Shown one piece after another: positions 20,166-55,101 of a stretch of 55,101 nucleotides of DNA. How positions within the stretch are numbered: position 1 is the stretch's first letter; the number at the start of each line of letters is the position of its first letter. Source of the DNA: a virus. Taxonomy: Duplodnaviria; Caudoviricetes. Both the position numbers and the translations under genes were made by a program. The notes below the pieces were generated by a model. That model worked only from the letters and a program-made list of their open reading frames with translations. It made no database searches and had not been told where the DNA came from. The DNA lies in the IMG/VR virus record IMGVR_UViG_3300048849_000134, positions 1 through 55,101 of that record; one strand, written 5' to 3'.

Positions 20166-20206
20166 TACTACGAATTTGTTATCGTTAATATTTATGGTTA
20201 TCTTAG
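20166..20206 (+). promoter_or_regulatory. Class A motif copy 5 with -7 box
   Basis: TACTACGAATTTGTTATCGTTAATA then TATCTTAG. Confidence 0.8.
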
Positions 20207-20210
20207 TGTT

Positions 20211-21023: not shown

Positions 21024-21068
21024 GTAAACACCATAACCAATAGACCGCAAAGTCATTGGTTATTTTTG
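21024..21068 (+). promoter_or_regulatory. Class B (late) promoter, portal
   Basis: GTAAAC 21024; TATTTTTG 21061. Confidence 0.75.
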
Positions 21069-21073
21069 TTAGC

Positions 21074-22531
21074 ATGGAGTACAACACGTTATTACAGCTT
21101 GCCGAGTCTGATCCAGCTAAACTTATTTCTAGGATAACCGCTGTTCGCTATGATAGCGGAAAGGATGCGCTTCAATATGAACCGGAAAACCACGCTATCT
21201 TTGATAAGGCGCAGTATAAGGATCGTGAAGTATGGCTGCCTGTAAAAGATGAGAATGGTCAGAACGATACGACTGACACCGGAGAGCAGAAGTTAAGACG
21301 TGAATACGAAAAGGTCCCCCGGATATCATCTGTGCTCCAAAAGGAAATAGTTGATTGGGCGGTTAACACCTGCGCAGCCATTCCTGCTGAGCCGATACTG
21401 ACTCCACAAGAACCTACCAAAGACGAGCAGACCATTTTTGAGATGCTCAAGACTACATTCAAAGACAATAAAATGGCGTACCAAGATCGAGAGATATTGC
21501 GCCTTGTGATGATCCACAAAATAGTAGCTGAGATATGGTATAGGGAGGAAGATAAAAACATCTGGAAAGATATCAAAGGCTGTGATCCGTTTAAGATGCG
21601 TCTGGTCGTTCTATCTCCTGAAACCGGGGACCTACTGTATCCGGTCAAGAATAACATTGGCAAAATGATCGCATTAGGCCGAGAGTATATCACTATTGAT
21701 GATGACAATAAGGAGCAAAAGAAATTCGATATATTCACTTCTGAAAAGATACAAACGTTCGGACAGGCTGCCGGAGGATGGGTACTTGAAAGTGAAATAC
21801 CTATTGAATATGGTAAGGCAAATTTCATTGTTCACCAGCAATCAAAAACAGAATGGGAGGATCAACAGCCACGTATTGACAGGCTTGAGATAACTGATAG
21901 CTCATTGGCGTCCACAAACGATGCGCTTGGTAGCCCTATTCTTGCAATTACCGGACAGGTTATTGATTTTGGAAAGCGAGGTGATGCAGGGAAAATTTTT
22001 GAGCTAGAACAAGGATCGTCTATGAGCGTGGTCGAATCTGCATCGGCGCCGGAGTCTGTGCGGTTTGAAAGAGAGAACTTATTGAAGGGCATTTACTCAG
22101 GAAGTGCGACACCTCAGCTGTCGTTCGATGATGCTGCAGGATTTGGAGCGAATATTCCGGGTATTACCTTGAAGCTTCTTTTCCTGCCAACCACGTTAAA
22201 GGCTATGGGTAGACAAACGGGATCTTGGGGTATGTCCTACCAAAGAAGGATCAACTTCTTGCTTTATGCAATGGCTACTATATGCAAAAGGCTTATTTCA
22301 GTTCGTGACGTTGATGTATCGGTAAAATTCACACAATACATGCCGAGCAATGACACTGAGACGTATGATAATGCGGTGAAGCTGTATAGTGCCGGATTGT
22401 TGAGTATTGAAAAAGCAGTTGAAATGGTGGGTATCGCTGGAGAAGATCTTAAAGAGGAACTAGCCAGGTTAGATGCTGCAGCAAAACAAGCCGCCCAATC
22501 AAAATCCTCCCCAACCCTATCAGTTGCATAA
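21074..22531 (+). CDS. Portal protein (SPP1 Gp6-like)
   Basis: Size and position; EIVDWAV, LYPV, GITLKLLF, YQRRINFL motifs. Confidence 0.88.
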   Translation: MEYNTLLQLAESDPAKLISRITAVRYDSGKDALQYEPENHAIFDKAQYKDREVWLPVKDENGQNDTTDTGEQKLRREYEKVPRISSVLQKEIVDWAVNTCAAIPAEPILTPQEPTKDEQTIFEMLKTTFKDNKMAYQDREILRLVMIHKIVAEIWYREEDKNIWKDIKGCDPFKMRLVVLSPETGDLLYPVKNNIGKMIALGREYITIDDDNKEQKKFDIFTSEKIQTFGQAAGGWVLESEIPIEYGKANFIVHQQSKTEWEDQQPRIDRLEITDSSLASTNDALGSPILAITGQVIDFGKRGDAGKIFELEQGSSMSVVESASAPESVRFERENLLKGIYSGSATPQLSFDDAAGFGANIPGITLKLLFLPTTLKAMGRQTGSWGMSYQRRINFLLYAMATICKRLISVRDVDVSVKFTQYMPSNDTETYDNAVKLYSAGLLSIEKAVEMVGIAGEDLKEELARLDAAAKQAAQSKSSPTLSVA

Positions 22532-33881: not shown

Positions 33882-34394
33882 ATGGACCCAATTCTTAAAA
33901 CGTACATTTTAGACCATGCACCAAGCGGCATGTGTGATCCCGGTATTACCGGGGTTATATCTGCTGACAGTGTTGATGATCTACTGAACCTGTACAAGCA
34001 GCATATTGATTTCTCCCTATCTGAGGATTTCCCCTCTTCTGCCGACCTTGCTAAGTACGGTGGTGATGAACTGGAACGGCATGGCATCTACATTGGTTCT
34101 ACCATTCCCGATCTGACCATTACGGATAAGGGTTTTCTGGTCCTGCTTGAATCCTGCAAGGCGCAAGTGCAGTGCAAAGGATTCAGTGCATCTGAGATCT
34201 ACGTCAAGCATACCTCACAGGCCAACATAAGCGTACAAGGCTCCGCATTCGTTCAGGTTGATGTATTCGACTCAGCGCGCGTAGAGGTAAGTAATACCGG
34301 CATTGGCAGGGTTACAGTCAATGTGTACGGCAATGCAGTGGTCAAGTCAAGTGGTCAGGTTAAAGTGGTTTACAAACATAAGAAAACGTACTAA
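33882..34394 (+). CDS. Conserved phage protein with beta-repeat C-terminus
   Basis: Repeating V-x-V-F/Y-D/G-x-A units; coupled to TMP. Confidence 0.7.
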   Translation: MDPILKTYILDHAPSGMCDPGITGVISADSVDDLLNLYKQHIDFSLSEDFPSSADLAKYGGDELERHGIYIGSTIPDLTITDKGFLVLLESCKAQVQCKGFSASEIYVKHTSQANISVQGSAFVQVDVFDSARVEVSNTGIGRVTVNVYGNAVVKSSGQVKVVYKHKKTY

Positions 34395-37300
34395 TGGGTA
34401 AAGTAAATGGGAACGGCTCTCTTTCATTCAAGGCTGGATTAGATATATCCGAGGTCCAAAGGAACGCTGAGGAACTTAGGAAAATTTTAAAAGACCTTAA
34501 AATACAGTCTAGCGCCGCAACAGCAACAGGTGCAGTTCCAGCATCCAACACTCAAGGTGTGAATGCCTATCGTGAGGCGCAACTCAGAATGCAGCAATCT
34601 TTGCGCGACTCAAGGCTTGAAACACAAAGGTTAAAGCAGGAGCAACAAAATCTCCGTAATCAATTCGAACAAGGGCGCGTAAGCCAACAAACATACAGGA
34701 CTGAAGCTGATCGATTAAGGGCTGAGTTGACCGCATTAAGGCTCGCCACTGCACAAGCTAGGACAGTCCAGACAGCGACAAACGGATCTTATAAAGAGGC
34801 TCAGCAGCGACTTACTGCATTAGGCAATGAAATCAGGAATACAACCGGCGGCTTTAGTAGTCAAACTCCTGCCTTAAGAGCAAAGATTAAAGAATACAAC
34901 GAGCTAAATGATCGCCTAAAGCAGTTCGACGCGACAATGGGTAACCACGGGCGTAACGTCGGTAATTACAGGCAGGAAATTAAAGGCGCGGCTTCTGATC
35001 TATTGAGTTTCGCTACATCTTACCTCTCTGCCGGAGCAGCCTTGCAATATGTGTTTCAATCAACATTGAAATTCCAGTCAATTAAAACGCCTTTAACCTA
35101 TATTTTAGGTTCTGAAGGGGATGCCAACAACAAACTTGCTGAGCTTAAGCAATTAGCTAGTGATTTGGGTATAGAATACTTCGCGTTAGCTGATTCTTAC
35201 CGTTCGTTTTCTGCTGCCGCACGTGCATCAAACTTTGATTTAGATAAGTCAGAAAAGATATTCCGTTCAGTTGCGAAGGCTGGGGCTGTTCTACACCTTA
35301 GTTCGGATCAGATGAGTGGAGCGCTCCTTGCTATCCAGCAGATGATTAGTAAAGGAAATGTTCAGGCCGAAGAATTACGTGGACAGTTATCTGAGCGTTT
35401 ACCGGGGGCGTTCTCGCTTGCGGCAAAAGCTATGGGGGTAACGGAACAAGAGTTAAATAAGCTGCTTCAAACAGGCAGCGTCGTTGCTTCCGACTTACTT
35501 CCAAAATTAGCTGATCAGTTAGATAAACGTTACGGTGATAAAGCTGCAGGAGGTATCCATGGGCTTAATTCTGAATTGAATGGGCTTATCTCGGCTTTAC
35601 AATCTATGGCTGGTGAAGGTAAGTGGAGCGAAAAAGTCTTTGAACCGATAATTCGTGGAGCTAAAAACCTAGCCAGGGAGCTATCGTATGTGTTTAGGGG
35701 ATCAACAATGGAAAACCTTAAGTACCTGTTAACCTTTAGCAACAAGGACATAGCTAACCAGCGCAAAGCATATGATCTAAGAGATACAAATGCAAATAAC
35801 ATAAATGCTCTTCAGGCATCGAAGAAAAATAACATCTCCGATCTGGGATTGGGCGATCTTCGCACCGCATACACTCAAATAGATGCCACGTACAAGCAAG
35901 CAGTTCGTGATTATAAAGCATTTGAAGCGGGCGTTAAGAATGGGAGTTTAAAAGAAACAAACAAGGCTACCGTTGCATCATTCTTTAATGTAGCCGCTGG
36001 ACTTCGAGAAGAACGTAAGAGAATCGCTACCGAATTGGATAAAGCAAAATCTGAGCAGGTAAAAGGTAATAAGGATATTGCAGATTCTGCATTGACAGCA
36101 GTAGCAGACATCCGTAAACGTATCACCCAACTTCAAAAGCTATCTGGATCAGCAGATCCTGGAAGTGATATAGCAAAGCGTATTGAGGCATTACAAGCAA
36201 GGATAAAGAAAGGTGGTGATGCGGCAGGCAAAGCCCAGGAGAGCGCATTGAAAAGACAACGTGCTTTGCAGGCTGAAATAGATGCGCTCACTAAAAAAGG
36301 AGTCGCTAGCAAGCTGGATGCAGATCAACAGGAGATTGTCAGTGTTGAGAATAAGTACAAGAAGCTACGCGAAAAAGCGATTGCATTCAATAATGCGAAG
36401 GATAGCAAAGGCCAGAAAGTAAACCTGAGCGGGCTCGATAACGCAGAAACTGCTGAGAAAAAGGAGATCACAGATAAGAGCGCGACTAAAACACTAAAGG
36501 GCACGCTCGATACACAGGCAAAGTACTACAGCGAGTTTGAGGATCTAAAAAACCGAATTGGTGAAGATAAAGCAAAGGAACGGTATGCAAAGCTGATAGA
36601 TACTGATAAAACATATTTAGATACTTTGAGGGAAGCGCAAGAAAAGTATGCCGCAAATCCTTTTGCAATGAAGTTGCTAGCGGAGGAATCTGCAGCCGCA
36701 AATGTCGATATCCAAAAGGTAAGCGACGAACGTTATGCACGCGCCTTACAGGCTGCAACTACTCACGCTCAGGCATTAGCTGCTATTGATCGCGAGTATA
36801 ACGAGAATGTAAAAGCATTAGGCAAAGACGCAACAGCCGAGCAGATCGCGAACCTGAACAGGCAAAAAGCCGAGGCTATCCGCAATGCCAATGAAACCAA
36901 TGCCTACCTGAAATCAGGCTATGATGAGTTGATGCAGAACTTTGATGCTATGACCAGGGGGCAGATACGTGAGCGTTTGGAGGCTATTAAGAAAGGCTAC
37001 CAGGACGAATATAAGGCAGGCAAGTTAACCGCGGAACAACTGGCAAACCTAGTCGGTCCCATCAATGATGGTATTGCTAAACTCGATGGTAACAATTCAT
37101 TCAAACAAGTAACGTCTGCTATTAAAAACTACCGGGAACAAGTTAAGTTGCTTGGCAAGGATAGCGAAGGTGCCAAAGAAGCGCAAAAAGGCATGTTTGC
37201 GGCAATGGCTCAAGGTGCTGCCGATATCAATGAGGTACTTGGAGAGGTGGCAGGATCACTGGAACAGCTTGGTATTGGTGGCGAAGGGTTGCAAAATGCC

Positions 37301-38368
37301 TTTAAGAACGTACAGGGTGCCGTTGACGGGATTGGTAAGATCGGTAAAGGACTTGCAACTGGCAATCCTGTAGATGTTGTTACGGGTAGTATCAAGCTGC
37401 TAACAAGTGCGCTCGGCTTGTTCAATACCAAAGATAAAAAGCTGCAAAAGCAGATTGATGGGTATAAGGACCAAATAGACAGCCTATCCCGGTCCTACGC
37501 TGCATTAGATCGGGCCGTAAACAATAGCGTTGGAGAGTCTTTCTACACGGACAGCAGAAAGGAAATTGATAACCTGATGGCTCAGCAAAAGCTACTGATC
37601 GCTATGCGGGATGCTGAGAGCAAAAAGAAGAAAAGCGATAAAGATAAGATAGCTGAGTACAATGCCCAGATTGATGAGATCCCAAACAAGATAGCAGATA
37701 TCAACAAGGCTATCTCAGAGAACCTAATACAGACCCATTTCAAGGACTTATCCAACAACCTAGCCGATGCCCTAGCCGAGGCATTCGCAAGCGGTGAGGA
37801 CAGCGCAAAAGCATTTGATAATGTATTTCGCGGGGTGATTAGTAATGCCGTTAAGAACTCGCTCAAGTTGAAGATCCTGGATCCAATCATCAAGAAGTTT
37901 ACGGATGATCTGACTGAATACGCAGAGGGGAATGACAACAGTGTAATTGGCTTTGATTTCAATGCGTATAAGGATCAGCTGAAAGCAGCAGGCGATCTAT
38001 TCAGCGCAGGACTGAAAGGCAGTGAGGAATACTTTAAAAGCGTTGGGTTGGATGCAGGTACTGTGGCGAGTGCGAATGGCGGTATAGCGTCTAAGGGTAT
38101 TACTGCCATTACCCAGGAAACCGGAGGTTCAATAGATGGTACGTTAAGAGCCCAATACGACATAACCAAGCAAAGCAATACGCAGCTGGTTACATTGAAT
38201 AAGGTTACTTTCGATGCTTTCAATATCGCCAAACAAAACCTGGATGTGGCGGTTCAAATCCAACTAAACACGCTACGTACCGCGAATAACACAGACGGGA
38301 TTGGACCTAAGCTGGATAAGATCATTACCAATACCTCATCGCAATCGAGCCGGGGATTGACAGGATAA
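34394..38368 (+). CDS. Tape measure protein
   Basis: 1324 aa coiled-coil; QMISKGNVQAEELRGQLSERLPGA tape-measure domain. Confidence 0.93.
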   Translation: MGKVNGNGSLSFKAGLDISEVQRNAEELRKILKDLKIQSSAATATGAVPASNTQGVNAYREAQLRMQQSLRDSRLETQRLKQEQQNLRNQFEQGRVSQQTYRTEADRLRAELTALRLATAQARTVQTATNGSYKEAQQRLTALGNEIRNTTGGFSSQTPALRAKIKEYNELNDRLKQFDATMGNHGRNVGNYRQEIKGAASDLLSFATSYLSAGAALQYVFQSTLKFQSIKTPLTYILGSEGDANNKLAELKQLASDLGIEYFALADSYRSFSAAARASNFDLDKSEKIFRSVAKAGAVLHLSSDQMSGALLAIQQMISKGNVQAEELRGQLSERLPGAFSLAAKAMGVTEQELNKLLQTGSVVASDLLPKLADQLDKRYGDKAAGGIHGLNSELNGLISALQSMAGEGKWSEKVFEPIIRGAKNLARELSYVFRGSTMENLKYLLTFSNKDIANQRKAYDLRDTNANNINALQASKKNNISDLGLGDLRTAYTQIDATYKQAVRDYKAFEAGVKNGSLKETNKATVASFFNVAAGLREERKRIATELDKAKSEQVKGNKDIADSALTAVADIRKRITQLQKLSGSADPGSDIAKRIEALQARIKKGGDAAGKAQESALKRQRALQAEIDALTKKGVASKLDADQQEIVSVENKYKKLREKAIAFNNAKDSKGQKVNLSGLDNAETAEKKEITDKSATKTLKGTLDTQAKYYSEFEDLKNRIGEDKAKERYAKLIDTDKTYLDTLREAQEKYAANPFAMKLLAEESAAANVDIQKVSDERYARALQAATTHAQALAAIDREYNENVKALGKDATAEQIANLNRQKAEAIRNANETNAYLKSGYDELMQNFDAMTRGQIRERLEAIKKGYQDEYKAGKLTAEQLANLVGPINDGIAKLDGNNSFKQVTSAIKNYREQVKLLGKDSEGAKEAQKGMFAAMAQGAADINEVLGEVAGSLEQLGIGGEGLQNAFKNVQGAVDGIGKIGKGLATGNPVDVVTGSIKLLTSALGLFNTKDKKLQKQIDGYKDQIDSLSRSYAALDRAVNNSVGESFYTDSRKEIDNLMAQQKLLIAMRDAESKKKKSDKDKIAEYNAQIDEIPNKIADINKAISENLIQTHFKDLSNNLADALAEAFASGEDSAKAFDNVFRGVISNAVKNSLKLKILDPIIKKFTDDLTEYAEGNDNSVIGFDFNAYKDQLKAAGDLFSAGLKGSEEYFKSVGLDAGTVASANGGIASKGITAITQETGGSIDGTLRAQYDITKQSNTQLVTLNKVTFDAFNIAKQNLDVAVQIQLNTLRTANNTDGIGPKLDKIITNTSSQSSRGLTG

Positions 38369-38881: not shown

Positions 38882-39796
38882 ATGAACAACTATTACCTAA
38901 ACGGCAAAAACATAGCAGACTACGGGATCATTCCGGGTCAGTCAAATAACAGTAACCTAGCAATTGCTGGATGCTGGGATATGCCAGTCCGTACAGGTAA
39001 AACTTACCATGAATGGCCTGATGAAAATGGCATTGAACCATACCTCAGGGCAGATGAGATCTTCTTTGCAGGCCGGGATATAACATTTACGTTCTACGTC
39101 GCTGCAAGTGATCGTGAGACTGCTATTAAGAAGTGCTATGCGCTTTATGATGATATAAACAGCTTCACGGGGTTAGTGCCTTTTAGTTCCGACTTATACG
39201 GGTCATACAACGTGCAGGTTAAGGATGAGGTAAAGATTGAATACCTGGGATCTGGTTACTGTAAAGGTGTAATAACCATGCGAGAACCGATTGTAAACTT
39301 GACGGGTATCGCATTCGATACAGATTTTCAGAGGCCATCTATAGATGATTGCAGTCTGCAAAGTATGGGGTTCGCGATTGTATCAATGACCGATCAGTTT
39401 AACAGGCCTGGCGCAAAGCCGGCAGAGGTAACTGCATATGGATATGAGGGCTACAAGGTTGCGAAAACCGGCCCGCGCATATTCAACCTGGAACTTGCTG
39501 GATCGTTTGGCAGCTACTATGAATTCAATATGTCGATCCGTGGACTTGCTGCAATGCTTGCGAAACCTAATGCCCGGACACTGATCCATAACGGAATTAC
39601 TCGTGAGTTCTTTGCTAAAGATGGGTTTAAGCTGGACCGCATGCAGAAGGAAGGTGAACAGTATAAGTGTACACTTAAAATGGCTTTGACTGAGATCAGG
39701 GTGCTATCAACCTATAACCTATTCACGGACAATGCAGGTAATATACTAACAGATGGCAACGGGGTTCCGCTTGCTGAAATACTAAAAATGAATTAA
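38882..39796 (+). CDS. Distal tail (Dit-like) protein
   Basis: HEWPDENGIE..RDITFTF; two similar halves; follows TMP. Confidence 0.7.
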   Translation: MNNYYLNGKNIADYGIIPGQSNNSNLAIAGCWDMPVRTGKTYHEWPDENGIEPYLRADEIFFAGRDITFTFYVAASDRETAIKKCYALYDDINSFTGLVPFSSDLYGSYNVQVKDEVKIEYLGSGYCKGVITMREPIVNLTGIAFDTDFQRPSIDDCSLQSMGFAIVSMTDQFNRPGAKPAEVTAYGYEGYKVAKTGPRIFNLELAGSFGSYYEFNMSIRGLAAMLAKPNARTLIHNGITREFFAKDGFKLDRMQKEGEQYKCTLKMALTEIRVLSTYNLFTDNAGNILTDGNGVPLAEILKMN

Positions 39797-39983: not shown

Positions 39984-42221
39984 ATGGTGGGAGAAATTGT
40001 AGACGTACCAGGCACAAGAGATGTAACGCTGGATTTGCAGAAACGGACCTTTGTGAAGGCATCTGATCGTTTTCTGATGGTCAACCAGGAGACGAAAGAG
40101 TTGCAATATGTAACAGCTGATCAGATTCAAGGATCTTCAAATATGATGAGGGCCGACTCTGTTGGTGCGGTAGGTGACGATATTCATGATGATACGATTG
40201 CTATTCAAAATGGAATCAACGAATGCGCTCTACAAGGACTTCCATTCTATTTGCATAAACCTGCTGTCCGGTGGGTAATTGATCGGATCGTCGTTCCTGC
40301 TGGTGTAACAATAGTTACGGATGGATACGATACTGTGGTTAGGCATTTGCCGCAATCTCTAGCGGACAGACGTGCCATTGAAATTAGGGGGAGTAACGTA
40401 AAGCTTGGGGACTTCAAATTTTACGGTAATATTTCTACTGATATAAATGAGCAAAATCATGCAGTATACATTAGAGCGCAAACTGAATCATACGAAAACA
40501 TCGAAATAGGAAATATTTGGGGTTTAAATATTAGAGGTGATGTTTTGTACATCGGCGCTAGAAGCCCTTATAATGTTAACATCGTCAAAGTAGGGAACAT
40601 ATATGGATCAAACATTCTTAGAAATATAGTCTCTGTTACAGGAGGAAGTAATATTGACATACAATCAATAGATGGCGATAAGGTTGGCTCATTGGCATTC
40701 GATGTTGAGCCTGAACCAACTTATGCTCCAGTAGACAATGTCCATATCGGTTTTATACGTGGGCGAGGCGCTAACCTTGCTGCAGCATCTGCCATAAATC
40801 CAATTTCAAATGTAAGGGTCGATAAGATGGTGTTATCTCCCTCAATCCAGGCTCAAAGTGAACCTGCTTACTATCCTGAATTAGCTACAGGTCATGGCAT
40901 GGTTGTAAGAAACCTTTATTCGGCAAATATTGGCTATTTAGAGGCCTATGGGTTTAGTAAATGTGCAATATTCACCATTATAAACCCCGGCGAAATTGGA
41001 TGCAAAAGTCTTAGAATAGATTCAGTAAACATACATGATTGCAGTTTAATCGACGCTCAATATAATTCCTTTATTCAGGGTTCAGGTGGATCAATAGAGA
41101 TAGGTAGTGGGGTGATTAATGTTACAGGGCAAAAGTCAGGTATTTCTGGATTTGAAAAAGTTAAGATTTCAAGTTTAACCAGCAATCTAGGCTCAGCTAA
41201 CGATTTACTCATTAAAGGCGTAGACAAGGTTGATTTAAACCTGCTGGATGTTACTGGTTCAGGTACAATGTTAAGGTTTGTTACAAAAGGGGGCGATGTA
41301 AGAAACACAAAGCATGCGGGAACCTACGCAGCTACAGCTTGTAATAACTTATTGTTTTCAAACCTAGAAGCATCCGTTTCGGCAGATGTATTTGATGCGC
41401 AAAACAGAAATCATCAGGTGATTGCAAGTACCGTGAATGGCGTCCCGTACGCATTCGGCATTGATAACCCATTAGTGAATAGTATTGGTGCTTTGGATGC
41501 AAAACCGGCAAGCGTCAACGGTTTTACTATTGGCAATGATAATAAGCTCTATCCACAATCCGCATCTGCAACGAGACCTGGATTATTGAGTGCTGTCTTG
41601 CAGGTGATATCTGGAGTTAAAAGGTTCATGACAACCCTTGTGGCATCTGCAGGTATTGCACGTGGGACTACATTCGAACACGCATTAACAGCGTCCGCAA
41701 ATAACGATGTTATTGTTGGGGCATATTTCGGGTCCAACCTAAACAGCGGAGGATTTACAGGGGTAAAAACATACCAAATACAAGCTATCGGAACATCGCA
41801 GCTTAACTCCGATAATACAGGCAAGGTGTTTTTTGGGTCAGAAAGAGGGTTTCAATTTGGGACAGGCTTTGAACTTCGCGGAAGCGGCGCCATATGGAAT
41901 CCGGCCTCAAGCTCTTTTGGGCTTAGACTTGGTTTTGATGCTACATCGAATGTTCCTTCCCTTCAAGGATATCGTGAATCTGTCGGCGTCACCGACATTT
42001 TGCTCCAGGCGACTGGGGGCAACGTAGGTATTGGAGTTTCTGTAGCCACAGACAAACTTCATGTATCGGGAAACATAAGAGCAACGGGTCTGATTAATCT
42101 AGGTCAATTCACGACAGCAACAAGGCCAGTGTATAGCAAAGGAGCTCAGTTTTTTGATACCACCTTGAGTAAGCTTGTCGTGGGCGGAGCGTCGGCATGG
42201 GAAGTAGTTACATCAGCATAA
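39984..42221 (+). CDS. Tailspike / beta-helix depolymerase (pectate-lyase-3-like)
   Basis: GAVGDDIHDDTIAIQ; I/V-N-G-rich beta-helix repeats; C-terminal GNVGIG..DKLHVSGN. Confidence 0.8.
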   Translation: MVGEIVDVPGTRDVTLDLQKRTFVKASDRFLMVNQETKELQYVTADQIQGSSNMMRADSVGAVGDDIHDDTIAIQNGINECALQGLPFYLHKPAVRWVIDRIVVPAGVTIVTDGYDTVVRHLPQSLADRRAIEIRGSNVKLGDFKFYGNISTDINEQNHAVYIRAQTESYENIEIGNIWGLNIRGDVLYIGARSPYNVNIVKVGNIYGSNILRNIVSVTGGSNIDIQSIDGDKVGSLAFDVEPEPTYAPVDNVHIGFIRGRGANLAAASAINPISNVRVDKMVLSPSIQAQSEPAYYPELATGHGMVVRNLYSANIGYLEAYGFSKCAIFTIINPGEIGCKSLRIDSVNIHDCSLIDAQYNSFIQGSGGSIEIGSGVINVTGQKSGISGFEKVKISSLTSNLGSANDLLIKGVDKVDLNLLDVTGSGTMLRFVTKGGDVRNTKHAGTYAATACNNLLFSNLEASVSADVFDAQNRNHQVIASTVNGVPYAFGIDNPLVNSIGALDAKPASVNGFTIGNDNKLYPQSASATRPGLLSAVLQVISGVKRFMTTLVASAGIARGTTFEHALTASANNDVIVGAYFGSNLNSGGFTGVKTYQIQAIGTSQLNSDNTGKVFFGSERGFQFGTGFELRGSGAIWNPASSSFGLRLGFDATSNVPSLQGYRESVGVTDILLQATGGNVGIGVSVATDKLHVSGNIRATGLINLGQFTTATRPVYSKGAQFFDTTLSKLVVGGASAWEVVTSA

Positions 42222-42239
42222 ATACAAATAAACAATATC

Positions 42240-42620
42240 ATGGCATTATTTACAGAAAAAAGGACTCCATACGAATTTTTAGTTAGATGGGACGTTAATG
42301 GCGTTATTCAAGGTGCCCATATTGGCTTTTTAGATACCGTGCTAAAAGATGGCGAAGTGTTGACTCAAATTCCTTCGAATGTCGAGAGTGTTGCTGTCGG
42401 AGTTCAAAACGGGTTCCCTTTGGACGATGTATTAGATAAGGCGCTAAGTGATGCACTGACGAAAATAGACTTATTGGAAGAAGCAAACTCCGAAGTGATA
42501 GCAGAGAAGATTGAGCTTGCCGGTAGGATTGCCGATCTGGTCTTAGAGCTAGAAGCTGTTAGGGCTGAAAACGCGAAACTGCAAGAATCTATTAACCAAC
42601 TCCAAGCTGATCCTGCTTAA
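42240..42620 (+). CDS. Tail-associated hypothetical protein with coiled coil
   Basis: PYEFLVRW..GAHI; position. Confidence 0.65.
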   Translation: MALFTEKRTPYEFLVRWDVNGVIQGAHIGFLDTVLKDGEVLTQIPSNVESVAVGVQNGFPLDDVLDKALSDALTKIDLLEEANSEVIAEKIELAGRIADLVLELEAVRAENAKLQESINQLQADPA

Positions 42621-45600
42621 TGCTTAATTCGCTTCAAATATACCGTAACGATCAGCCGTACCTACTGATACCAATTGACGAGAAAACTGAGTTCTTCCAG
42701 GCTGTCATGGGTGATCACGTAATCACGACTCAATTCATCAGTCCGGTGCCGCTGGATATTGATGAGGGTGATTACATCCTGTTCCGAGGCGAACGGTTTA
42801 CAATCAATAGGCCATTGCCTCCATTGGATAAAACTAGCCTAACTGAGTTTACATACAATCTTACCTTTGAAGGGTATGTTTATGATTTACTGGATATGCC
42901 GTACATGCACTTGGGGTCACTGGAGTTTAGTTACTTCGGGACGCCTGCTATGTACTTGCAGATCCTTGTTGATTGTATGAACTCAATTAGCTCTGGATGG
43001 TCTGTCGGAGCGGTTGATGCACTCCCAGAACAGCCCCTTGACTTTTACGAGTCAGGCAAGGGCTTTTCATGCAAGGGTGCGCTGATCAAAATTGCCGAGG
43101 CGTTTAAACTTGAATTCTGGTTAACAGGCAAGACAATCAATCTTACCGCTCAGGCTGGGGTACTGACAAACCTTACCTTTGAATATGGCAGAGGTCGCGG
43201 ATTATACAAGATAAGCCGGGGCCAGATCAATGATACTGCATACTTCAACAGGCTTTATGTCCAGGGTAGTGATAAGAATATACCGTCTGGTTATAGAGGT
43301 GGTGCAAAGCGTTTACAGGTCGGCAATGATCCGTACCTTGAACTGCCATTAACGGGCGGTAAGAAAAGGCGCGCCAACTCGATTGTTATTGATGATATTT
43401 TCCCTAAACGCGTCGGAACAATTACAGCGGTCAGTGCCGATTGGCTAACCATTACCGATACCGCCATTGACTTTGATGTAAATGGTCAGCGTATCGATGG
43501 ACAAAAAGCGACAGTTGAAATAACAAGTGGAGAAAATGCTGGACAGTCTTTTGAGATTGATAGCTACGTTCATGCAACACGCACGATCAAGCTCCTGCCG
43601 CTGACTGAAACAGATGGATACGTGCGCCCAAATAGCACCTATAGTATTGCCGTAGGTGATAAGTATTTCTTTGCTGGAATCAATATGCCGCAGACTTACA
43701 TTGATGCAGCTGAAAAAGAGTTGCGGGATCGGGGCACTACCCTACTCAACACTGCAGCAAATCAACTCCCACCATATAGCGTTGAGGTATCAGACAAATT
43801 CATGCGCGATAACGGTATTACCGTAAACGCAGGTGATCGTGTTGGACTTAAAGATGCGCAGATCGGTGTAGATGCAAAGATTCGTGTTTCATCTGTCAGG
43901 TTCCCTTTGGTTGACCCGAACAACGTTCAATTGGTTATATCAGATGTTATTCCGCTGAACAATACCGAAAAGACAATAATTGATGTAGATAAGACGAAAC
44001 GCGATGTTGTTGTAACGACTAAAATAAGCGCAGAGAAAGCACGCAGAAACATGCTGGACATGCGTATGCTGAAAGATAAGATATTCGATCCTGACGGCTA
44101 TTTTGATCCGGAGAGCATTAAGCCGCTGAGTATTGATACTTACATGCTATCCGTTGGGGCAAAAGGTCAGAATTTCAGCTTAAACAACGTTACAATTGAC
44201 GCAAATACTGGAGGTGATCCGAACTACCTAACTATTTCAGGAGGTTCGCTTATTCACTATGAGGTTGAAACTCCCGGTCTTGGTTATGTATGGCAGATTT
44301 CCGCAGGAGAATTCCCGGCACTGGATCCAGCCAAAACATACTTTGTTTCCGCTAAGTGCTCCCGTAATGAGCTTGCAGGTATTTGGTCGGTAAGCGAGGT
44401 GCCGATTAAAACAGAAGAAGTTTCCGGCTTTTATCACTTTAATATCGGCATCCTGTTTCCTGTTGGATCAGATGGAACTCGAGGATTTGACTTCACTAAT
44501 GGAATGACCTTTATAGTTGGAGATCGGATCACAACCGGACGCATACAATCACTTGACGGCCTTAATTTCCTTGACCTATCGGCTGGAACTTTCAACCTGG
44601 GTGATGTATTGAGTGGATTGGATTGGAGTATTACCAATGAGGGGAAGCTAACTGTTCGCGGAGAGATCATTGCTACTGATGCACAGTTTATTAACCTTGC
44701 TGTTGAAAATCTTAAAACGGGTAAAGTAAAAATCACCGCCGAAAACAATAACATCATAATTGAAGACGGCGACAAAAACGCTATGATCATATTAGATGAT
44801 GATTGCGCCGTTGAGGGTTATACATTAAGTCCGGTTGATGGAGGTAGGCCCGTGATTATACCTGTTTATGGTCCCGGAGCTCGATTTGGATTGTCTCCAA
44901 ATAACTCATCTGGGTTTTCTTCAATAGGCAGGAAGGGGTTATTTACCAACGGAAAGTACACGGCTGGAGGCAACGGGAAAACGCTTGTTATGGATCATGA
45001 TGGATTCTCTACCAATTCAGGTAAGCGGACTTTGTCTGGTCAGTTTAGGCTTGCCCCAATACCAAACAACCCTGCGCTTACCGACAATAATGCGATGCTT
45101 GTTACAATTGAAAACGGGCTTATCGTTGGTTTTGAGGAATTAGTTGATGGAACTAAGCAGCCGATGACAGTTAATGATCCTACGAGCCTGCCCCCTGATA
45201 ACACCAATGATACGGGATATACGTCTGGAGACGGCGGAGGTGGCATTGATCCACCTATTCAGATTACACCGACGACCTTCACGGCCGCAAACTTCCCGCT
45301 TGGACTTGTGACAAAGAGGGGGCAAACATCAAATACCAATTATTCCGGTATACTCAGCACCCACGTAAAAAGGTTCACTATTGAGAACGATCTAAAGACC
45401 ACAACAACAAGGGTAAATGAAACTACCTTTAATTATACCAATGCTGATACGCAGGCAGCCTGGGCAAAAGAAAACGGACTCACTATTCACGGACATTGTT
45501 TATTGTGGGCAAAGGATGCGTATATCCCTCAATACATCAAAGACTATGAAACGGCGGGAACCCTGACAACCCAGCAATGGAATGACAAACTGAAAGACCT

Positions 45601-46291
45601 GATTCAAGCGCCAATCCTTCATTACAAGAATACTCCGTCTGTTTCTGGTGTCATTAAATCCTGGGATGTAGTTAACGAACCATTCCTTGAGGCTGCCGAC
45701 ATAGACACAACGGCTAGGGTAGTTTTCAAAAATTGCGTTTGGTTGCGCGTATTAGGTCCGGACTACATTAAGTTAGCCTTTCAATACGCCTATGAAGCTG
45801 ATCCAACTTGCATTTACTTTCTGAATGATTACGGTTGGGAGTACGGTTGGAAAAAGGTTGACGAAATGGTACGGCTTGCAACCGAGTACCAGGCTGCAGG
45901 TATTCCTATGCACGGTTGGGGGTTACAGTTGCATACTTACCTAAGTATGTCAAACAACGGCATAACAAGCAACTTGCAGCGCCTTGTTGATACAGGTTTG
46001 AAAATCCATATCTCCGAGCTTGCAATTCAGCTTCGCGAAGGTACCGTACCGAATCCGTTTGTATTAACACCAGCGCTTGAAGCCTCACAGGCGGCCAAGT
46101 TCGTGACCATTTTCAATGCGTTTAAAGCGATACCGTCCGAGCAGAAGTTCGGCATTACAACCTGGGGGATTATCGATTCAGGGTACTGGAAAGTGGTTGA
46201 TTCAGGCAATGCCGATTACCCGTTATTGTTTAACGATGACTTCACAACTAAACAGGGATACCGGGATGCGTTAACAGCAATACTTACATAA
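42620..46291 (+). CDS. Tail-tip (Tal-like) protein fused to C-terminal GH10 glycoside hydrolase
   Basis: N-terminal phage tail motifs (FEYGRGRGLY, GSDKNIP, DDIFPKRVG); P/T/G linker; ENDLK, IHGHCLLW, WDVVNE, NDY, GLQLH, ISEL, ITTWG. Confidence 0.9.
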   Translation: MLNSLQIYRNDQPYLLIPIDEKTEFFQAVMGDHVITTQFISPVPLDIDEGDYILFRGERFTINRPLPPLDKTSLTEFTYNLTFEGYVYDLLDMPYMHLGSLEFSYFGTPAMYLQILVDCMNSISSGWSVGAVDALPEQPLDFYESGKGFSCKGALIKIAEAFKLEFWLTGKTINLTAQAGVLTNLTFEYGRGRGLYKISRGQINDTAYFNRLYVQGSDKNIPSGYRGGAKRLQVGNDPYLELPLTGGKKRRANSIVIDDIFPKRVGTITAVSADWLTITDTAIDFDVNGQRIDGQKATVEITSGENAGQSFEIDSYVHATRTIKLLPLTETDGYVRPNSTYSIAVGDKYFFAGINMPQTYIDAAEKELRDRGTTLLNTAANQLPPYSVEVSDKFMRDNGITVNAGDRVGLKDAQIGVDAKIRVSSVRFPLVDPNNVQLVISDVIPLNNTEKTIIDVDKTKRDVVVTTKISAEKARRNMLDMRMLKDKIFDPDGYFDPESIKPLSIDTYMLSVGAKGQNFSLNNVTIDANTGGDPNYLTISGGSLIHYEVETPGLGYVWQISAGEFPALDPAKTYFVSAKCSRNELAGIWSVSEVPIKTEEVSGFYHFNIGILFPVGSDGTRGFDFTNGMTFIVGDRITTGRIQSLDGLNFLDLSAGTFNLGDVLSGLDWSITNEGKLTVRGEIIATDAQFINLAVENLKTGKVKITAENNNIIIEDGDKNAMIILDDDCAVEGYTLSPVDGGRPVIIPVYGPGARFGLSPNNSSGFSSIGRKGLFTNGKYTAGGNGKTLVMDHDGFSTNSGKRTLSGQFRLAPIPNNPALTDNNAMLVTIENGLIVGFEELVDGTKQPMTVNDPTSLPPDNTNDTGYTSGDGGGGIDPPIQITPTTFTAANFPLGLVTKRGQTSNTNYSGILSTHVKRFTIENDLKTTTTRVNETTFNYTNADTQAAWAKENGLTIHGHCLLWAKDAYIPQYIKDYETAGTLTTQQWNDKLKDLIQAPILHYKNTPSVSGVIKSWDVVNEPFLEAADIDTTARVVFKNCVWLRVLGPDYIKLAFQYAYEADPTCIYFLNDYGWEYGWKKVDEMVRLATEYQAAGIPMHGWGLQLHTYLSMSNNGITSNLQRLVDTGLKIHISELAIQLREGTVPNPFVLTPALEASQAAKFVTIFNAFKAIPSEQKFGITTWGIIDSGYWKVVDSGNADYPLLFNDDFTTKQGYRDALTAILT

Positions 46292-46403
46292 CCTTATGAG
46301 CCTTTGCCATTGCCTGTATTTCTGCCTGAGTAGGCTTTGGATCATCTTTTTTACATCTAGTCAATGCCAGTAGTATTGCCGCGATTATCATTAAATTTTT
46401 CAT
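46284..46403 (-). CDS. 39-aa lipoprotein-like ORF (not in track)
   Basis: MKNLMIIAAILLALTR-CKKDD. Confidence 0.5.
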   Translation of the reverse strand: MKNLMIIAAILLALTRCKKDDPKPTQAEIQAMAKAHKVM

Positions 46404-46472
46404 GATTAAATGTTGGCATAGTTCACGGCTCCTGCACCTCCTGCAATGGCTAATATGTACCAAAATACACAG

Positions 46473-46533: not shown

Positions 46534-47856
46534 ATGAAAAAATTAATCGAATGGCTAATGGCTTTCCTTGGGATCAAGAAGCCTACCCCTGAACCCGTAC
46601 AAGTGCCGGTTCCTGCCCCAGAACCAGCTCCTGTTGAACCAACTCCCGTTGAGCAACCAGTGCCCGATCCGGTTATCATCCCAATGCCACCAGCGCCAGA
46701 ACAGCCACCTGTTGAAGAAGAACCAGAACCATTACCGCCTGCTGCTGAAACGCCACCCGTATACATCCCGCCTGTTGTCGTTGAAGTACCTGTACCTGCT
46801 CCTCCTGTAATTGCGCCACCCGTTATTGCGCCCGTGCCTCCCGTTCCCGCACCGCCGGTAGTTGAACATGCGCCCCCGGTTATCAAACCACCCGTAGTTG
46901 TACAGCCTACCCCAATCAAAGAACCATCCCTCCTTTCATCACCAATTACCTGGGGCGTTGCATTCAAAGAAGCTGATCTATCCAATCAAACGGTAATTAA
47001 CGAAACCTATAAGCAGTTCAAATCAGTAACCGGGGAAAATAGCATGAAGCCCGGACACGTTCAGCCCTCGCAAGGTAAATTCGATTTTACCCACGCAAAG
47101 GCCTTGGTTAAGATTGCAAAAGCAAAAGGCATTCGCATTCATGGGCACGCCTGTTTCGTATGGCCTAGTCAAGAAAAGAACCTGCCAGCGTTTTGGCATG
47201 AGGCTGCAAAGGATAAGGCCACATACATAGCGCTGCTCAAGAATACCGTTCAAACAACGGTACGGGAGTTCAAAAATGACATTACATCCTGGGATATCAC
47301 CAATGAGGCGCACGATAATAACGGCAAGCCCCGCCCTTGTTATGCCCTCACTCACCTGGGCCCAACGTATCACGAGCAAATTGCAAAATGGATCCTTGAG
47401 GTACAGCCGTCCACAAAGCTATTCATGTCCGATTACGATTTTGAAACAGCAAGCAAGAAAGCGGGAGTTGTAATTGACTATGCGGGTACATTGGCACGTA
47501 AAGGATTGATCCATGGTATTAGCTCGCAGATGCACACAAACCTTAAAATGGATTACAAGACCTACAAGAAACAGTTGGACCGTATGGCTGCAGCTGGTCT
47601 ACTCGTACACCTGTCAGAACTGGATATCGCTTGCAAGCCAACTGAGGAAGCCCAAAAAGCAGCCAAATACAAAGAGATTGCGACAGGATTCCGTACCATT
47701 CCCGGTGCATTACAATACGGCATTACAACCTGGTCGCATACCAATGGCAAAAACTTCATGAACTACAAGAAAGTTCCGGCCCCGTATGCTCCAGCAATAT
47801 TCGATAACGACTTTAACGGCGGGTTAACCTTACCTGCTATCCTTGGAGTTGCTTAA
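46534..47856 (+). CDS. GH10 glycoside hydrolase with Pro-rich N-terminal stalk
   Basis: TGENSMK, IHGH, WDITNE, SQMH, LSELDI, ITTW; about 115 aa P/V/E-rich. Confidence 0.9.
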   Translation: MKKLIEWLMAFLGIKKPTPEPVQVPVPAPEPAPVEPTPVEQPVPDPVIIPMPPAPEQPPVEEEPEPLPPAAETPPVYIPPVVVEVPVPAPPVIAPPVIAPVPPVPAPPVVEHAPPVIKPPVVVQPTPIKEPSLLSSPITWGVAFKEADLSNQTVINETYKQFKSVTGENSMKPGHVQPSQGKFDFTHAKALVKIAKAKGIRIHGHACFVWPSQEKNLPAFWHEAAKDKATYIALLKNTVQTTVREFKNDITSWDITNEAHDNNGKPRPCYALTHLGPTYHEQIAKWILEVQPSTKLFMSDYDFETASKKAGVVIDYAGTLARKGLIHGISSQMHTNLKMDYKTYKKQLDRMAAAGLLVHLSELDIACKPTEEAQKAAKYKEIATGFRTIPGALQYGITTWSHTNGKNFMNYKKVPAPYAPAIFDNDFNGGLTLPAILGVA

Positions 47857-54045: not shown

Positions 54046-55101
54046 TTACCCAAAAATATCATCATTAGCAGCATCCAGCTCATCGTTTTTCCGAATATCA
54101 TTCAGATACCCCTGGTGTACCTTCAAATCGCTGTGCCCCAATAGCTCCATTGTGATCATTGGGTTGTTGATCTTATCGATTGCCATACGCGCATAGGTGT
54201 GACGTGCAATGTGGGAGGATAGGGGCTTGGTGATGTCGGCCATGATCGCGATAAGTTTAAGTTGATAGTTAATGAGAGCCGTACAAGTCTCTTTGTGCTT
54301 CAGCCGCGCTTTGTCGTTCGCGAACCTACTCAACTTGACGTCAGGTTTCCATTTGAAGAAAGGGAATAGCCGCTCATGTTTGCCCGCATATTTATCTACT
54401 ATCGCCTGGGCCGGAGCAATTAATTTAACGTCGTGGCTTTTGCCTGTCTTATCGTCCTGGTATCTAAACCTCCCATCCCTGAAGTCACCGGAATAAGCCT
54501 GGAGCAAATCGCCCACGCGTACCCCACGCAAATACACCTGGAGTACAAAGATATCCCTTGAGGCTTCTTTATTACTTCCGGGCTCTAATTCCACTTCAAC
54601 CAGTCTGGCAAATTCCTCACGGGTTAACTTCTGCTTTAATCCTTTTGGCGCTTTGACTACAATATCCTTTACGTCCTGACTAATTCCGTTTTTAGAATAC
54701 CTAGCTATTATACCTCGAATTATTTTAACCTTTTGTTTGATTGTACTTGGACCATTACCGATGTCGGTAAGCGCCGATATAAAACCGTTGATCCACCGAT
54801 CATCTATACTATTTATGTTAACATCATATTTATAACCATGCCTCATAATAGCTAGCACATTATCGTACGCCACCGGTTTAAACTCGCGCTCCGTTCTTAT
54901 TATTTCAGCATTGAAGCAATCGGAGAGTGTAACCACCTTATCAGAGGAAAAAATCTTATCAATACCTTTTTCTCCGGACCTGATATCGTAAAGATCCTTT
55001 TCGGCTTTTGATAGTTCTTTGGCTATAATATTATTCCGCTTTGCCGAATCTTCTACCTTGTTTTTTATTCTGCATGCTTTGAAGTCCCATTCATCCTCCA
55101 T
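54046..55101 (-). CDS. int: Tyrosine recombinase (integrase), probably 5'-truncated by window edge
   Basis: GVRVGDL (R), KTGK, HIARHTY, LGH, C-terminal Y. Confidence 0.92.
   Translation of the reverse strand: MEDEWDFKACRIKNKVEDSAKRNNIIAKELSKAEKDLYDIRSGEKGIDKIFSSDKVVTLSDCFNAEIIRTEREFKPVAYDNVLAIMRHGYKYDVNINSIDDRWINGFISALTDIGNGPSTIKQKVKIIRGIIARYSKNGISQDVKDIVVKAPKGLKQKLTREEFARLVEVELEPGSNKEASRDIFVLQVYLRGVRVGDLLQAYSGDFRDGRFRYQDDKTGKSHDVKLIAPAQAIVDKYAGKHERLFPFFKWKPDVKLSRFANDKARLKHKETCTALINYQLKLIAIMADITKPLSSHIARHTYARMAIDKINNPMITMELLGHSDLKVHQGYLNDIRKNDELDAANDDIFG

Follow-up and report, generated by a model that had tools for sequence, protein, structure and literature searches.

The window, by which we mean the whole 55,101-nucleotide stretch analysed, is best explained as a temperate siphovirus provirus from a soil Bacteroidota host, probably a member of the Sphingobacteriaceae. 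The one sequencing run that holds the window sequence is labelled soil metagenome. The record has a CheckV completeness of 60, so the prophage may be defective. All the evidence is metagenomic, the provirus being known from sequence alone. The features considered here are:

34394..38368, + strand: tape measure protein (PHROG 18891, E 1e-79)
38882..39796, + strand: conserved 304-aa tail gene in the gap between tape measure and β-helix genes, 53-60% identical in three related contigs (L003, L005 and L007)
39984..42221, + strand: 745-aa receptor-binding-type protein: conserved anchor in roughly the first 45 aa, plus a probable right-handed β-helix
42240..42620, + strand: ORF of 126 aa, its stop codon overlapping the start of Tal; weak, sub-threshold matches of coiled-coil type only
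42620..43993, + strand: N-terminal hub domain of Tal (aa 1-458), with a gp27-like fold as in baseplate hubs (AlphaFold/Foldseek)
43994..44689, + strand: middle part of Tal, with helices of low confidence (aa 459-511) and then a β-rich domain (aa 512-690)
44690..45226, + strand: conserved connector module that travels with GH10, aa 691-869
45227..45277, + strand: Gly/Pro/Thr linker GDGGGGIDPPIQITPTT, aa 870-886, read from the translation
45272..46291, + strand: GH10 (β/α)8 catalytic domain (envelope aa 885-1223) and stop codon
46284..46403, - strand: small antisense ORF between the two GH10 genes; counted from an internal ATG it has 39 aa, and its lipoprotein-type signal has a terminal Cys
46534..47856, + strand: GH10b, a second GH10 protein of 440 aa, with GH10 at aa 132-438 (Pfam E 6.2e-50)

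The Tal gene (42620..46291, + strand) starts with ATG, encodes 1223 aa and is the sole long frame in its region. It lies downstream of the tape measure gene, with six listed ORFs of at least 60 aa between the two (85, 70, 304, 60, 745 and 126 aa). The original prediction described its product as a tail-tip protein in which about 880 aa of phage tail protein are followed by a P/T/G linker and an intact GH10 domain, a layout that stands at every point. The tail portion matches PHROG 19846, a family without a named function, over aa 19-656 (E 4e-152), and tblastn aligns aa 22-656 with proteins annotated as tail proteins in phages of Riemerella, Porphyromonas and Bacteroides. When the AlphaFold model of aa 1-690 was compared with the PDB by Foldseek, baseplate-hub and Tal structures were returned at a probability of 1.00 and target TM scores of up to 0.71, among them the monocin tip 9j1k_L, the tail-associated lysin of phage NF5 (9m7n_A, rank 2), the MuSo2 43 kDa tail protein 3cdd, Listeria gp18 (3gs9), the 80alpha baseplate 6v8i_AE and Mu gp44 (1wru). 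The hub itself is modelled with a pLDDT mostly of 85-93. The Pfam family PF06605 (Prophage_tail) scores 22.8 bits in the window's Tal, under the cut-off of 31.3; the orthologue in the related contig L004 passes with 46.2 bits, and that in L003 falls slightly below with 31.0.

Beyond the hub, confidence drops to a pLDDT of 33-45 over aa 459-511 and recovers to 81-92 over most of aa 520-620. This middle part is missing from a shorter relative, P0004, in which the hub match runs to aa 470 and the cassette match resumes from aa 487. The connector is modelled poorly (pLDDT 35-60, with aa 661-880 poor overall), and the ESM Atlas yields only leads below 0.9; it has near-invariant columns in a 13-sequence alignment (A1), namely N697, I705, T706, A707, N710-I712, D726, D727 and several Gly. 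The linker has a pLDDT below 50. Like the Tals of siphophages NF5 (9m7n), 80alpha (6v8i) and Listeria (gp18, 3gs9), the protein combines an N-terminal gp27-like hub with a swappable C-terminal module. In classical Tals this extension is a peptidoglycan hydrolase or a fibre that binds the receptor, whereas in the window it is a GH10 domain.

The identity of this extension is clear. Pfam PF00331 (Glyco_hydro_10) matches aa 889-1216 with an E-value of 7.1e-61 and 206.6 bits (cut-off 22.1). The match takes in 7-307 of the 311 profile positions; on the DNA it begins at nt 45284, close to the barrel start of about 45290 that had been proposed, and ends at nt 46267. A phmmer search of the PDB returned solved xylanases, including Cellvibrio Xyn10C and Xyn10A, with a best E of about 2e-38; given these E-values and those of the tail part, a chance match is excluded. 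The model of the domain (pLDDT about 96) has eight alternating strand/helix units and aligns with GH10 xylanase crystal structures at target TM scores of 0.82-0.91. Both motifs said to carry the catalytic glutamates are found in the translation at the positions given for them, WDVVNE with W1015 at nt 45662 and ISEL with I1131 at nt 46010. In HMMER alignments the acid/base E1020 (N1019-E1020, nt 45674-45679) and the nucleophile E1133 (nt 46016-46018) coincide with the corresponding catalytic Glu residues of Xyn10C and Xyn10A. Alignment A1 shows no variation among its 13 sequences at E922, N923, N1019, E1020, Q1103, H1105 and E1133, and each of the 23 phage-linked GH10 domains examined retains these catalytic-core positions. 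Comparison with the closest relative, in L004 (95% identical at the protein level, pS 0.50), gives a dN/dS of 0.039. These sequence comparisons indicate that the tail GH10 is under purifying selection with its catalytic machinery conserved, in keeping with the prediction that the Glu motifs are intact, and the domain is apparently a working enzyme of a Bacteroidota soil prophage. One could imagine instead a lectin-like carbohydrate-binding receptor domain in which catalysis is irrelevant, since enzymatically inactive tailspike-like receptor-binding proteins exist and GH10 domains seldom have alanine where the window has A964 and A1135. However, enzyme descendants that merely bind usually lose their catalytic residues, whereas here the Glu pair and its partners persist throughout the phage-linked set and dN/dS is low. 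We regard binding alone as quite improbable.

The joining of hub and GH10 is real and recurrent. It occurs in 13 of the 271 proteins compared, that is, in the window's own (P0001) and in 12 others from JGI, Logan and ENA, and is present on three of four related IMG/VR contigs. A 26,380-b Logan contig, assembled separately from a run that is possibly the window's own source, matches positions 42000-45409 with 0 differences, so that tail part, linker and the beginning of GH10 lie on one contig. Within GH10, at 45380-46041, the Logan graph is fragmented into five short pieces of uneven depth (111-249); this would be the one hint of an assembly chimera, and it shows a second variant in the same sample. 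With the junction on a single 26-kb contig and the same architecture in the 12 other proteins and three other IMG/VR contigs, a chimera is scarcely conceivable and was rejected. The original prediction did not know GH10 as a common tail domain, and a survey of phage records agrees: none of 50,697 INPHARED records has a tail-hub-GH10 fusion, and GH10 is absent among the 50 BFVD matches listed (32 at E<=0.001). The nearest structures to the GH10 model among the BFVD matches listed are GH5 phage proteins; GH5, like GH10, is a family of clan GH-A. In the records and literature searched we found no description of GH10 on phage tails.

Comparison among relatives suggests that the module moves. P0001 and P0004 have hubs that are only 32% identical, and yet from aa 664 to 1223, a segment that includes the connector, they share 80% identity. 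Conversely, P0001 and its L003 counterpart share 64% in the hub and just 31% in GH10. In L007 the Tal (P0016) is without GH10, and the domain is carried instead by the anchor-bearing (receptor-binding) protein upstream, P0251; a closely related GH10 is also found in a hubless protein, P0038, and sibling Tal proteins have collagen-like or S74 domains in place of GH10. By these sequence criteria the GH10 module behaves as a mobile tail receptor/enzyme cassette among unrelated hubs. In a tree, all 23 phage-linked domains fall with nine others on one side (SH-aLRT 98), opposite 68 other GH10 domains, so that the phage-linked domains sit, as far as their sequences tell, in a phage-enriched clade with altered sugar-binding positions. 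Its nearest cellular members include P0103, a protein with a lipoprotein-type signal and tandem GH10 domains. The window's domain is 94% identical to that of the Tal-linked P0004 and 68% to that of P0026, after which the best of the 150 matches listed reach 36-41%. Given this distance and the clade, the domain is not a recent copy from the host.

These relationships bear on the idea of an auxiliary metabolic gene, that is, a host xylanase that was acquired, serves no structural purpose and only happens to stand beside a tail gene. Several of the proteins are labelled endo-1,4-β-xylanase by JGI, and a viral GH10 "xylanase" figures as an auxiliary CAZyme of mangrove soil viromes in the portion of PMC6460857 available to us. 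More generally, what is accessible of PMC6460857 and PMC10465536 treats viral glycoside hydrolase genes of soil and rumen viromes as auxiliary metabolic genes, and the annotation "xylanase (GH10)" on viral contigs is the same. The Tal GH10, however, is neither free-standing nor non-structural: it shares one ORF with the hub, as in all 13 fusion proteins, GC content has no break at the domain (0.445-0.469), and the best matches listed below P0004 and P0026 are distant. The metabolic explanation does not suit a domain built into a structural tail protein, and we hold it to be highly improbable.

The closest characterized enzymes, GH10 endo-β-1,4-xylanases such as Cellvibrio japonicus Xyn10A (1clx, 1w2p, 1w3h) and Xyn10C (1us2, 1us3), have the same (β/α)8 fold at about 28% identity, with target TM scores of 0.82-0.84 for Xyn10A. 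In CjXyn10A numbering, the window has the equivalents of E43, N44, K47, H79, W83, N126, E127, Q/H, E246 and W305, and its -1 subsite residues are canonical. It differs in having Ala at the "WH" motif His (A964), at Y87 (A967) and at the Asp two residues past the nucleophile Glu in the ELD motif (A1135), and Lys at L314 (K1191). The "WH" His is present in 42 of the 68 other GH10 domains and in only one of the 23 phage-linked ones; the Trp equivalent to W313 is kept in four of the 23, one being W1190 of the window. We take the altered positions to belong to the glycone (-2) subsite, and such positions reportedly help CjXyn10A to tell xylose from glucose. Since the phage clade departs at these positions, its substrate may differ from classical xylan. 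It is conceivable that the GH10 scaffold was retargeted further, to a cellulose-like or uronic-acid EPS or to the glycan strand of peptidoglycan. The changes at Y87, L314 and the "WH" His could be read in this way, Tal C-termini often bear cell-wall hydrolases, and the second-ranking hub match is the NF5 lysin. Against this, we know of no GH10 enzyme active on HexNAc polymers, and the -1 subsite is unchanged; the idea strikes us as improbable. The Cellvibrio enzymes also differ in their setting, with a signal peptide or CBMs where the window has a phage tail hub, and they lie outside the separate phage-enriched clade.

The tail genes upstream are less readily assigned. The 304-aa protein has no family match in Pfam or PHROGs; we infer from gene position only that it is the distal-tail (Dit) protein. 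In the 745-aa protein, just the first 32-48 aa match the equivalents in L007 and L005. The separate β-helix spike of the original prediction corresponds to this protein, which is probably a right-handed β-helix by its ESM Atlas matches (feature score 0.93; TM 0.53/0.71 to PF12708 pectate-lyase-like clusters); the Atlas is the sole source of this call, as Pfam and PHROGs searches gave no match.

The original prediction was right about the Tal-GH10 protein and incomplete in that it missed both the cassette-like mobility of GH10 and the second enzyme, GH10b; the xylose-containing capsule/EPS or plant-derived matrix that it named as target is a candidate. GH10b begins with a short hydrophobic N-terminus and a Pro-rich stalk (39% Pro over about 110 aa), and its catalytic domain is 29% identical to that of the Tal. 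Its family comprises 17 clusters with 57-76% identity, the next match being at 35% and the nearest named relative a Mucilaginibacter xylanase (32%). Seven of the 17 N-termini have a lipoprotein-type signal, and five of the eight members without Cys have a significant amphipathic helix; the window's own N-terminus has no clear signal peptide and is not significantly amphipathic (muH 0.24, a value attained in 50% of shuffles). GH10b is probably membrane-tethered. As a free-standing gene it has the form expected of an auxiliary metabolic gene; its constant linkage to Tal, with an orthologue directly after the Tal gene in four of four related contigs (L003, L004, L005 and L007), nevertheless argues for a role in infection.

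We put at roughly 60% the probability of the whole picture, in which the provirus has a stalked GH10b and its Tal-borne GH10 is an endo-β-1,4-glycanase of the virion that removes a surface glycan or attaches to it. At its C-terminus the Tal would bear, on a flexible linker, a retaining GH10 endo-β-1,4-glycanase competent for catalysis. As Tal hubs are trimers, three barrels would hang at the tail tip, where they could bind and cut a β-1,4-xylan-type layer on the host surface, alongside the upstream β-helix protein, and so let the tip get to the outer membrane. GH10b, tethered to the envelope of the infected or lysogenic cell, might trim the same glycan, serving a receptor-destroying/release function or superinfection exclusion. 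To our knowledge, no β-1,4-xylan capsule has been described in the Sphingobacteriia.

Plant xylan is a possible though unlikely target. The tail enzyme would then attack hemicellulose in litter or biofilm around a xylan-degrading host, or xylan that the host's own uptake machinery holds at its surface, with GH10b as a lysogenic-conversion xylanase that feeds the host. The closest solved relatives are all true endo-1,4-β-xylanases, and the soil label of the run, the lipoprotein-type P0103 with its tandem domains, the Mucilaginibacter relative of GH10b and the lipoprotein-type signals retained in its family all fit. So does the upstream tail protein of L004, which bears a GDSL/SGNH esterase, a domain type that occurs in acetyl-xylan esterases too; the SGNH esterases of phage tails, however, usually deacetylate host polysaccharide, and phage tail enzymes in general normally target host-made surface polymers. 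The divergence at the glycone subsite and a shuffling that resembles that of a host-range determinant likewise speak against plant xylan.

A surface-glycan function for the tail GH10 has a parallel in Erwinia amylovora phage S6. According to the accessible text of PMC9544554, this phage has two β-1,4-glucanases, gp095 (GH5) and gp094 (GH48), and bacterial cellulose serves as its first receptor, with the CMC substrate and the receptor shown experimentally. Both cases would pit a plant-cell-wall-type β-1,4-glycanase against a surface polysaccharide, and both have two adjacent glycanase genes. In contrast, S6 is a Schitoviridae podovirus with other GH families on another carrier protein, and, set beside S6 and the Cellvibrio enzymes, the window's GH10 is known from sequence and model only. 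As far as the available part of a review of phage depolymerases goes (PMC10621286), xylan-active enzymes are a very rare phage class ("xylosidase"), for which Caulobacter phage Cr30 is cited. The likely role of the window's enzyme, removal of surface polysaccharide by the virion, would be that of this class and of β-helix tailspike depolymerases. It differs from the latter as a TIM barrel on the hub rather than a β-helix on a side spike, the β-helix here being in the separate upstream protein, and from the former, in the terms of that text, as an endo-acting GH10 rather than an exo-xylosidase.

The 39-aa antisense ORF between the two GH10 genes is nested in a 59-aa ORF (46284..46463, - strand), and the Tal/GH10b gap of L004 has, at the equivalent antisense position, a coding frame for a 39-aa peptide that closely resembles it.

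The GH10 genes of the window and their neighbours have the following arrangement, with the parts of the tail-tip protein Tal given by residue.

39984-42221, upstream protein, 745 aa
42620-46291, + strand, Tal-GH10 reading frame (P0001), 1223 aa
Tal aa 1-458, hub
Tal aa 459-511, low-confidence helices
Tal aa 512-690, beta-rich domain
Tal aa 691-869, connector, conserved and poorly modelled, followed by the linker and the GH10 domain
46284-46403, - strand, small antisense reading frame, 39 aa, between the two GH10 genes
46534-47856, + strand, GH10b (P0002), 440 aa, the gene after Tal

The original prediction, made from the sequence alone, held that the tail protein ends in an intact GH10 domain. 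PF00331 (GH10) matches aa 889-1216 of Tal (nt 45284-46267) with an E value of 7.1e-61 over profile positions 7-307 of 311. The AlphaFold model of aa 661-1223, for which a 33-sequence alignment was used, reaches a pLDDT of about 96 in the barrel. Comparison of the modelled barrel with GH10 crystal structures gave target TM values of 0.82-0.91. Family match and model alike bear the prediction out; the linker (aa 870-886) and the motifs WDVVNE (nt 45662) and ISEL (nt 46010), counted on the translation, lie where it had placed them. Among PDB sequences, phmmer found 136 distinct matches at E≤0.01 (best E about 2e-38). The listing of the 60 best consists of GH10 xylanases and proteins engineered from a GH10 scaffold, headed by Cellvibrio Xyn10C and Xyn10A and Pseudothermotoga Xyn11. 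E1020 and E1133 align on the catalytic Glu positions of solved xylanases. In an alignment of 12 hub fusions and one protein without a hub (P0038, whose GH10 domain is close to that of the window), E922, N923, N1019, E1020, Q1103, H1105 and E1133 are invariant, while K926, H959 and W1182 are conserved in at least 90% of the sequences. All 23 phage-linked GH10 domains retain the residues equivalent to E43, N44, N126, E127, Q, H and E246, and 22 retain that equivalent to W305. Compared with the related provirus contig L004, the GH10 domain of the window shows 95% protein identity, a pS of 0.50 and a dN/dS of 0.039; this is the one pair in which dN/dS was usable (for the GH10 domain and the GH10b linker), dS being saturated in all others. 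On both counts, the Tal GH10 enzyme looks functional.

The N-terminal part of Tal is a hub of the Tal type. PF06605 scores a weak 22.8 bits on the window protein against a cut-off of 31.3, and 46.2 bits, above the cut-off, on the L004 orthologue. PHROG 19846, a family without a named function, covers aa 19-656 (E 4e-152). By tblastn, aa 22-656 are about 30% identical to annotated phage tail proteins of Riemerella (RAP44-like), Porphyromonas, Elizabethkingia and Bacteroides; the 77 records matched all stay below 80% query coverage, and the 40 listed end at aa 688 or before. A model of aa 1-690 (pLDDT 81.5) matched the monocin tip, the tail-associated lysin of phage NF5, the MuSo2 43-kDa tail protein, Listeria gp18, the 80alpha baseplate and Mu gp44, each with a probability of 1.00, and on these matches we assign aa 1-458 to a gp27-like hub. 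For the connector (aa 690-868), the best ESM Atlas scores were at most 0.86 and pointed to no family.

A fusion of this kind might be an artefact of assembly. Against this, a 26,380-b Logan contig spans 42000-45409 with zero differences, running from the tail part across the linker and about 125 nt into the GH10 domain, although it comes from the single public run containing the stretch, a soil metagenome that is possibly the source of the record and is thus not independent. The fusion also recurs. Among 100 matches of a search of 5.8 billion proteins, 11 besides P0001 join a hub to PF00331 (P0003-P0008, P0010, P0012, P0026, P0035 and P0043, from JGI, Logan and ENA), with 37-80% identity to P0001 in the best local alignment. 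An exhaustive search added one more, P0204, which brings the other fusion proteins to 12; custom profiles detected hub and GH10 together in 13 of 271 proteins, P0001 counted. Three IMG/VR contigs (L003, L004 and L005) encode the fusion; a scan of IMG/VR with the phage-clade GH10 domains recovered the L004 contig alone. We therefore reject the artefact. In the Logan graph, positions 45380-46041 are tiled by five short pieces with depths of 111-249, between flanks that are single contigs at depths of 152-163. Given these unequal depths, the soil sample seems to contain another variant of the GH10 module as well.

The original prediction did not know GH10 as a common tail domain, and none of 50,697 INPHARED records contains the Tal-GH10 fusion. 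Matches to GH10 only came from eight unannotated faecal contigs labelled "UNVERIFIED Bacteriophage sp." (24-31% identity; MT835713.1 and MT839786.1 among them). In MT835713.1, the one of the eight whose gene content we examined, the part inspected (3406-20239) is ordinary bacterial chromosome, the GH10 gene lying beside genes for GlgB, phosphoglucomutase, purine nucleoside phosphorylase (PNP), YkuD (an L,D-transpeptidase) and a subtilase.

Comparison of the fusion proteins with their relatives, which are few and all metagenomic, shows GH10 behaving as a mobile cassette that moves among hubs and other tail proteins. P0001 and P0004 are only 32% identical in the hub and 80% identical over aa 664-1223; the protein of L003 shows the opposite pattern, with 64% identity in the hub and 31% in GH10. 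In a fourth related contig, L007, Tal (P0016, 1725 aa, hub score 636) lacks GH10, and a GH10 domain is found at aa 279-629 of the upstream protein (P0251, 821 aa), whose N-terminal anchor, about 32 aa long, is shared with the upstream protein of the window. That short anchor is matched in L005 and L007 and has no match in L004, and the body behind it differs from contig to contig:

L005, 7604-10000, PF12708 beta-helix
L004, 7311-9569, GDSL/SGNH esterase
L007, 2004-4469, GH10 and a further C-terminal domain

The upstream protein of the window itself is the candidate for the separate beta-helix spike that had been proposed. The proposal stands as a lead, the ESM Atlas grouping the protein with beta-helix clusters of PF12708 (feature score 0.93, TM 0.53/0.71). 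Neither Pfam nor PHROGs matched any part of the 745 residues. A further region of about 190 aa lies beyond the barrel in P0204 (1425 aa) and P0251, whose C-terminal ends look similar by eye; it could be a lectin-like domain.

The second GH10 gene accompanies Tal in the relatives as well. An orthologue of GH10b lies directly behind the Tal gene in all four related contigs (L003, L004, L005 and L007). Its GH10 domain (aa 139-428, E 6.2e-50) is 29% identical to that of Tal and is preceded by a stalk of about 110 aa, 39% of which are proline. The family comprises 17 clusters with 57-76% identity, all metagenomic, the next match being at 35%; seven of the 17 appear to share a contig with a Tal-family protein, to judge by equal lengths of the longest contig, and two members look truncated. 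In seven of the 17, the N-terminus is a lipoprotein-type signal that ends in Cys. Among the eight members without Cys, five have a first 16-residue segment whose helical hydrophobic moment is equalled by no more than 3.5% of shuffles. The window's GH10b belongs to the group without Cys, and its N-terminus is not significantly amphipathic by the hydrophobic-moment test. Going by the membrane-anchor-type N-terminus of most relatives, GH10b is probably tethered to the envelope. The antisense reading frame between the two GH10 genes encodes a peptide with a lipoprotein-type signal, its Cys followed by K-K-D-D, residues that we take to resemble the surface-export signal of Bacteroidota. A closely similar peptide occurs at the same position in L004, and the gene could be a moron acting, for example, in superinfection exclusion.

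Features placed elsewhere in the window are those of a prophage. The CheckV completeness estimate of this 55,101-b IMG/VR provirus record is 60, and the provirus sits in a host contig of 547 kb.

388-1101, - strand, CI-like HTH/S24 repressor, left end
15433-16872, terminase large subunit
21056-22531, portal
34394-38368, tape measure
54046-55101, - strand, tyrosine integrase, right end

RecT, exonucleases, a primase/helicase, the major head protein and a GH19 endolysin are also encoded between repressor and integrase. GC content varies between 0.37 and 0.47, with no break in the GH10 region. No tRNA gene able to mark an att site was found in the window, and no RNA dataset containing the stretch is listed among public runs. 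The gap of about 4 kb between terminase and portal genes holds several small reading frames and a GIY-YIG/HNH-type homing endonuclease (20314-21006; PHROG 314, E 1e-34). The host can be placed only through the names of the organisms that carry sibling Tal proteins. As these are Pedobacter antarcticus, P. nyackensis, P. gandavensis, Pleomorphovibrio and Parafilimonas, it would belong to the Sphingobacteriaceae or neighbouring groups. The sibling proteins end in domains other than GH10, such as collagen-like or S74 domains. Two pattern scans (P0001; A2) of 185,579 GTDB species genomes found no relatives, a result that, with this method, does not amount to absence.

Phage tail enzymes define which surface glycans can be breached, and beta-helix lyases and hydrolases, sialidases and cell-wall hydrolases dominate among them. 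A virion glycanase borne on Tal is likewise a known kind of device. We consider it most likely that three GH10 domains, carried on a trimeric tail tip, bind and cut a host-surface glycan of the beta-1,4-xylan type beside the beta-helix enzyme. GH10b, tethered by its proline stalk to the envelope of a cell that is infected or lysogenic, would clear this glycan too, favoring progeny release or superinfection exclusion. The closest experimental precedent is Erwinia phage S6, in which genes for GH5 and GH48 beta-1,4-glucanases are adjacent and bacterial cellulose is required as first receptor (PMC9544554). The structures nearest to the GH10 model in BFVD are GH5 phage proteins, with no GH10 among the 50 listed.

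The main rival to a host-made glycan is a substrate of plant origin, xylan that lies free in the matrix or is retained on the host. In a bolder version, which we consider improbable, the phage would find its host through the host's food. Xylan captured on the Sus-like machinery of xylan-degrading Sphingobacteriaceae would be the primary receptor bound by the tail GH10, and GH10b, by stripping it, would block superinfection and free the progeny, a receptor-destroying arrangement comparable to the HA/NA pair of influenza virus. In this lineage of soil Bacteroidota prophages, a classical hemicellulase family appears at the tail tip as an exchangeable cassette, each phage having two to three GH10 copies. 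Its presence points either to a surface glycan that is xylan-like (or GH10-cleavable) in bacteria that have been little studied, or to phages acting on plant matrix, and new biology would follow in either case.

In the literature passages and listings searched, viral GH10 is found only as a listed "auxiliary CAZyme" (PMC6460857) and xylan-active phage enzymes only as a very rare "xylosidase" class (PMC10621286); no GH10 domain on a phage tail protein is described there. The GH10 tail cassette, in two to three copies of which one is probably envelope-tethered, is on these searches new. What soil virome counts would register as a "viral xylanase AMG" is here a structural tail domain, and claims about carbon cycling built on such counts are therefore affected.

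The phage enzymes also stand apart within their family. A maximum-likelihood tree was computed from 100 GH10 domains, comprising those linked to phages, matches to the full protein and the top matches to the GH10 domain, a sample biased toward the query. In it, a branch with SH-aLRT support of 98 separates all 23 phage-linked domains and nine others from the remaining 68. The GH10b domains group in a single clade (support 100), and those fused to Tal fall into at least two. The His of the "WH" motif is present in one of the 23 phage-linked domains against 42 of the 68 others, and the W313 equivalent is Trp in four against 61. The window protein has A964 at the "WH" His, retains W313 as W1190, and carries K1191 for L314 and A967 for Y87; from work on CjXyn10A, we take these positions to shape the -2 subsite. 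A phage-enriched clade with altered subsites could be a source of new specificities. Within it lie three stand-alone GH10 proteins of about 380-400 aa (P0104, P0105 and P0106) with no signal peptide, whose barrel follows a Pro-rich linker and, ahead of that, a short N-terminal stretch; in other phages, they may act as separate enzymes attached to the tail.
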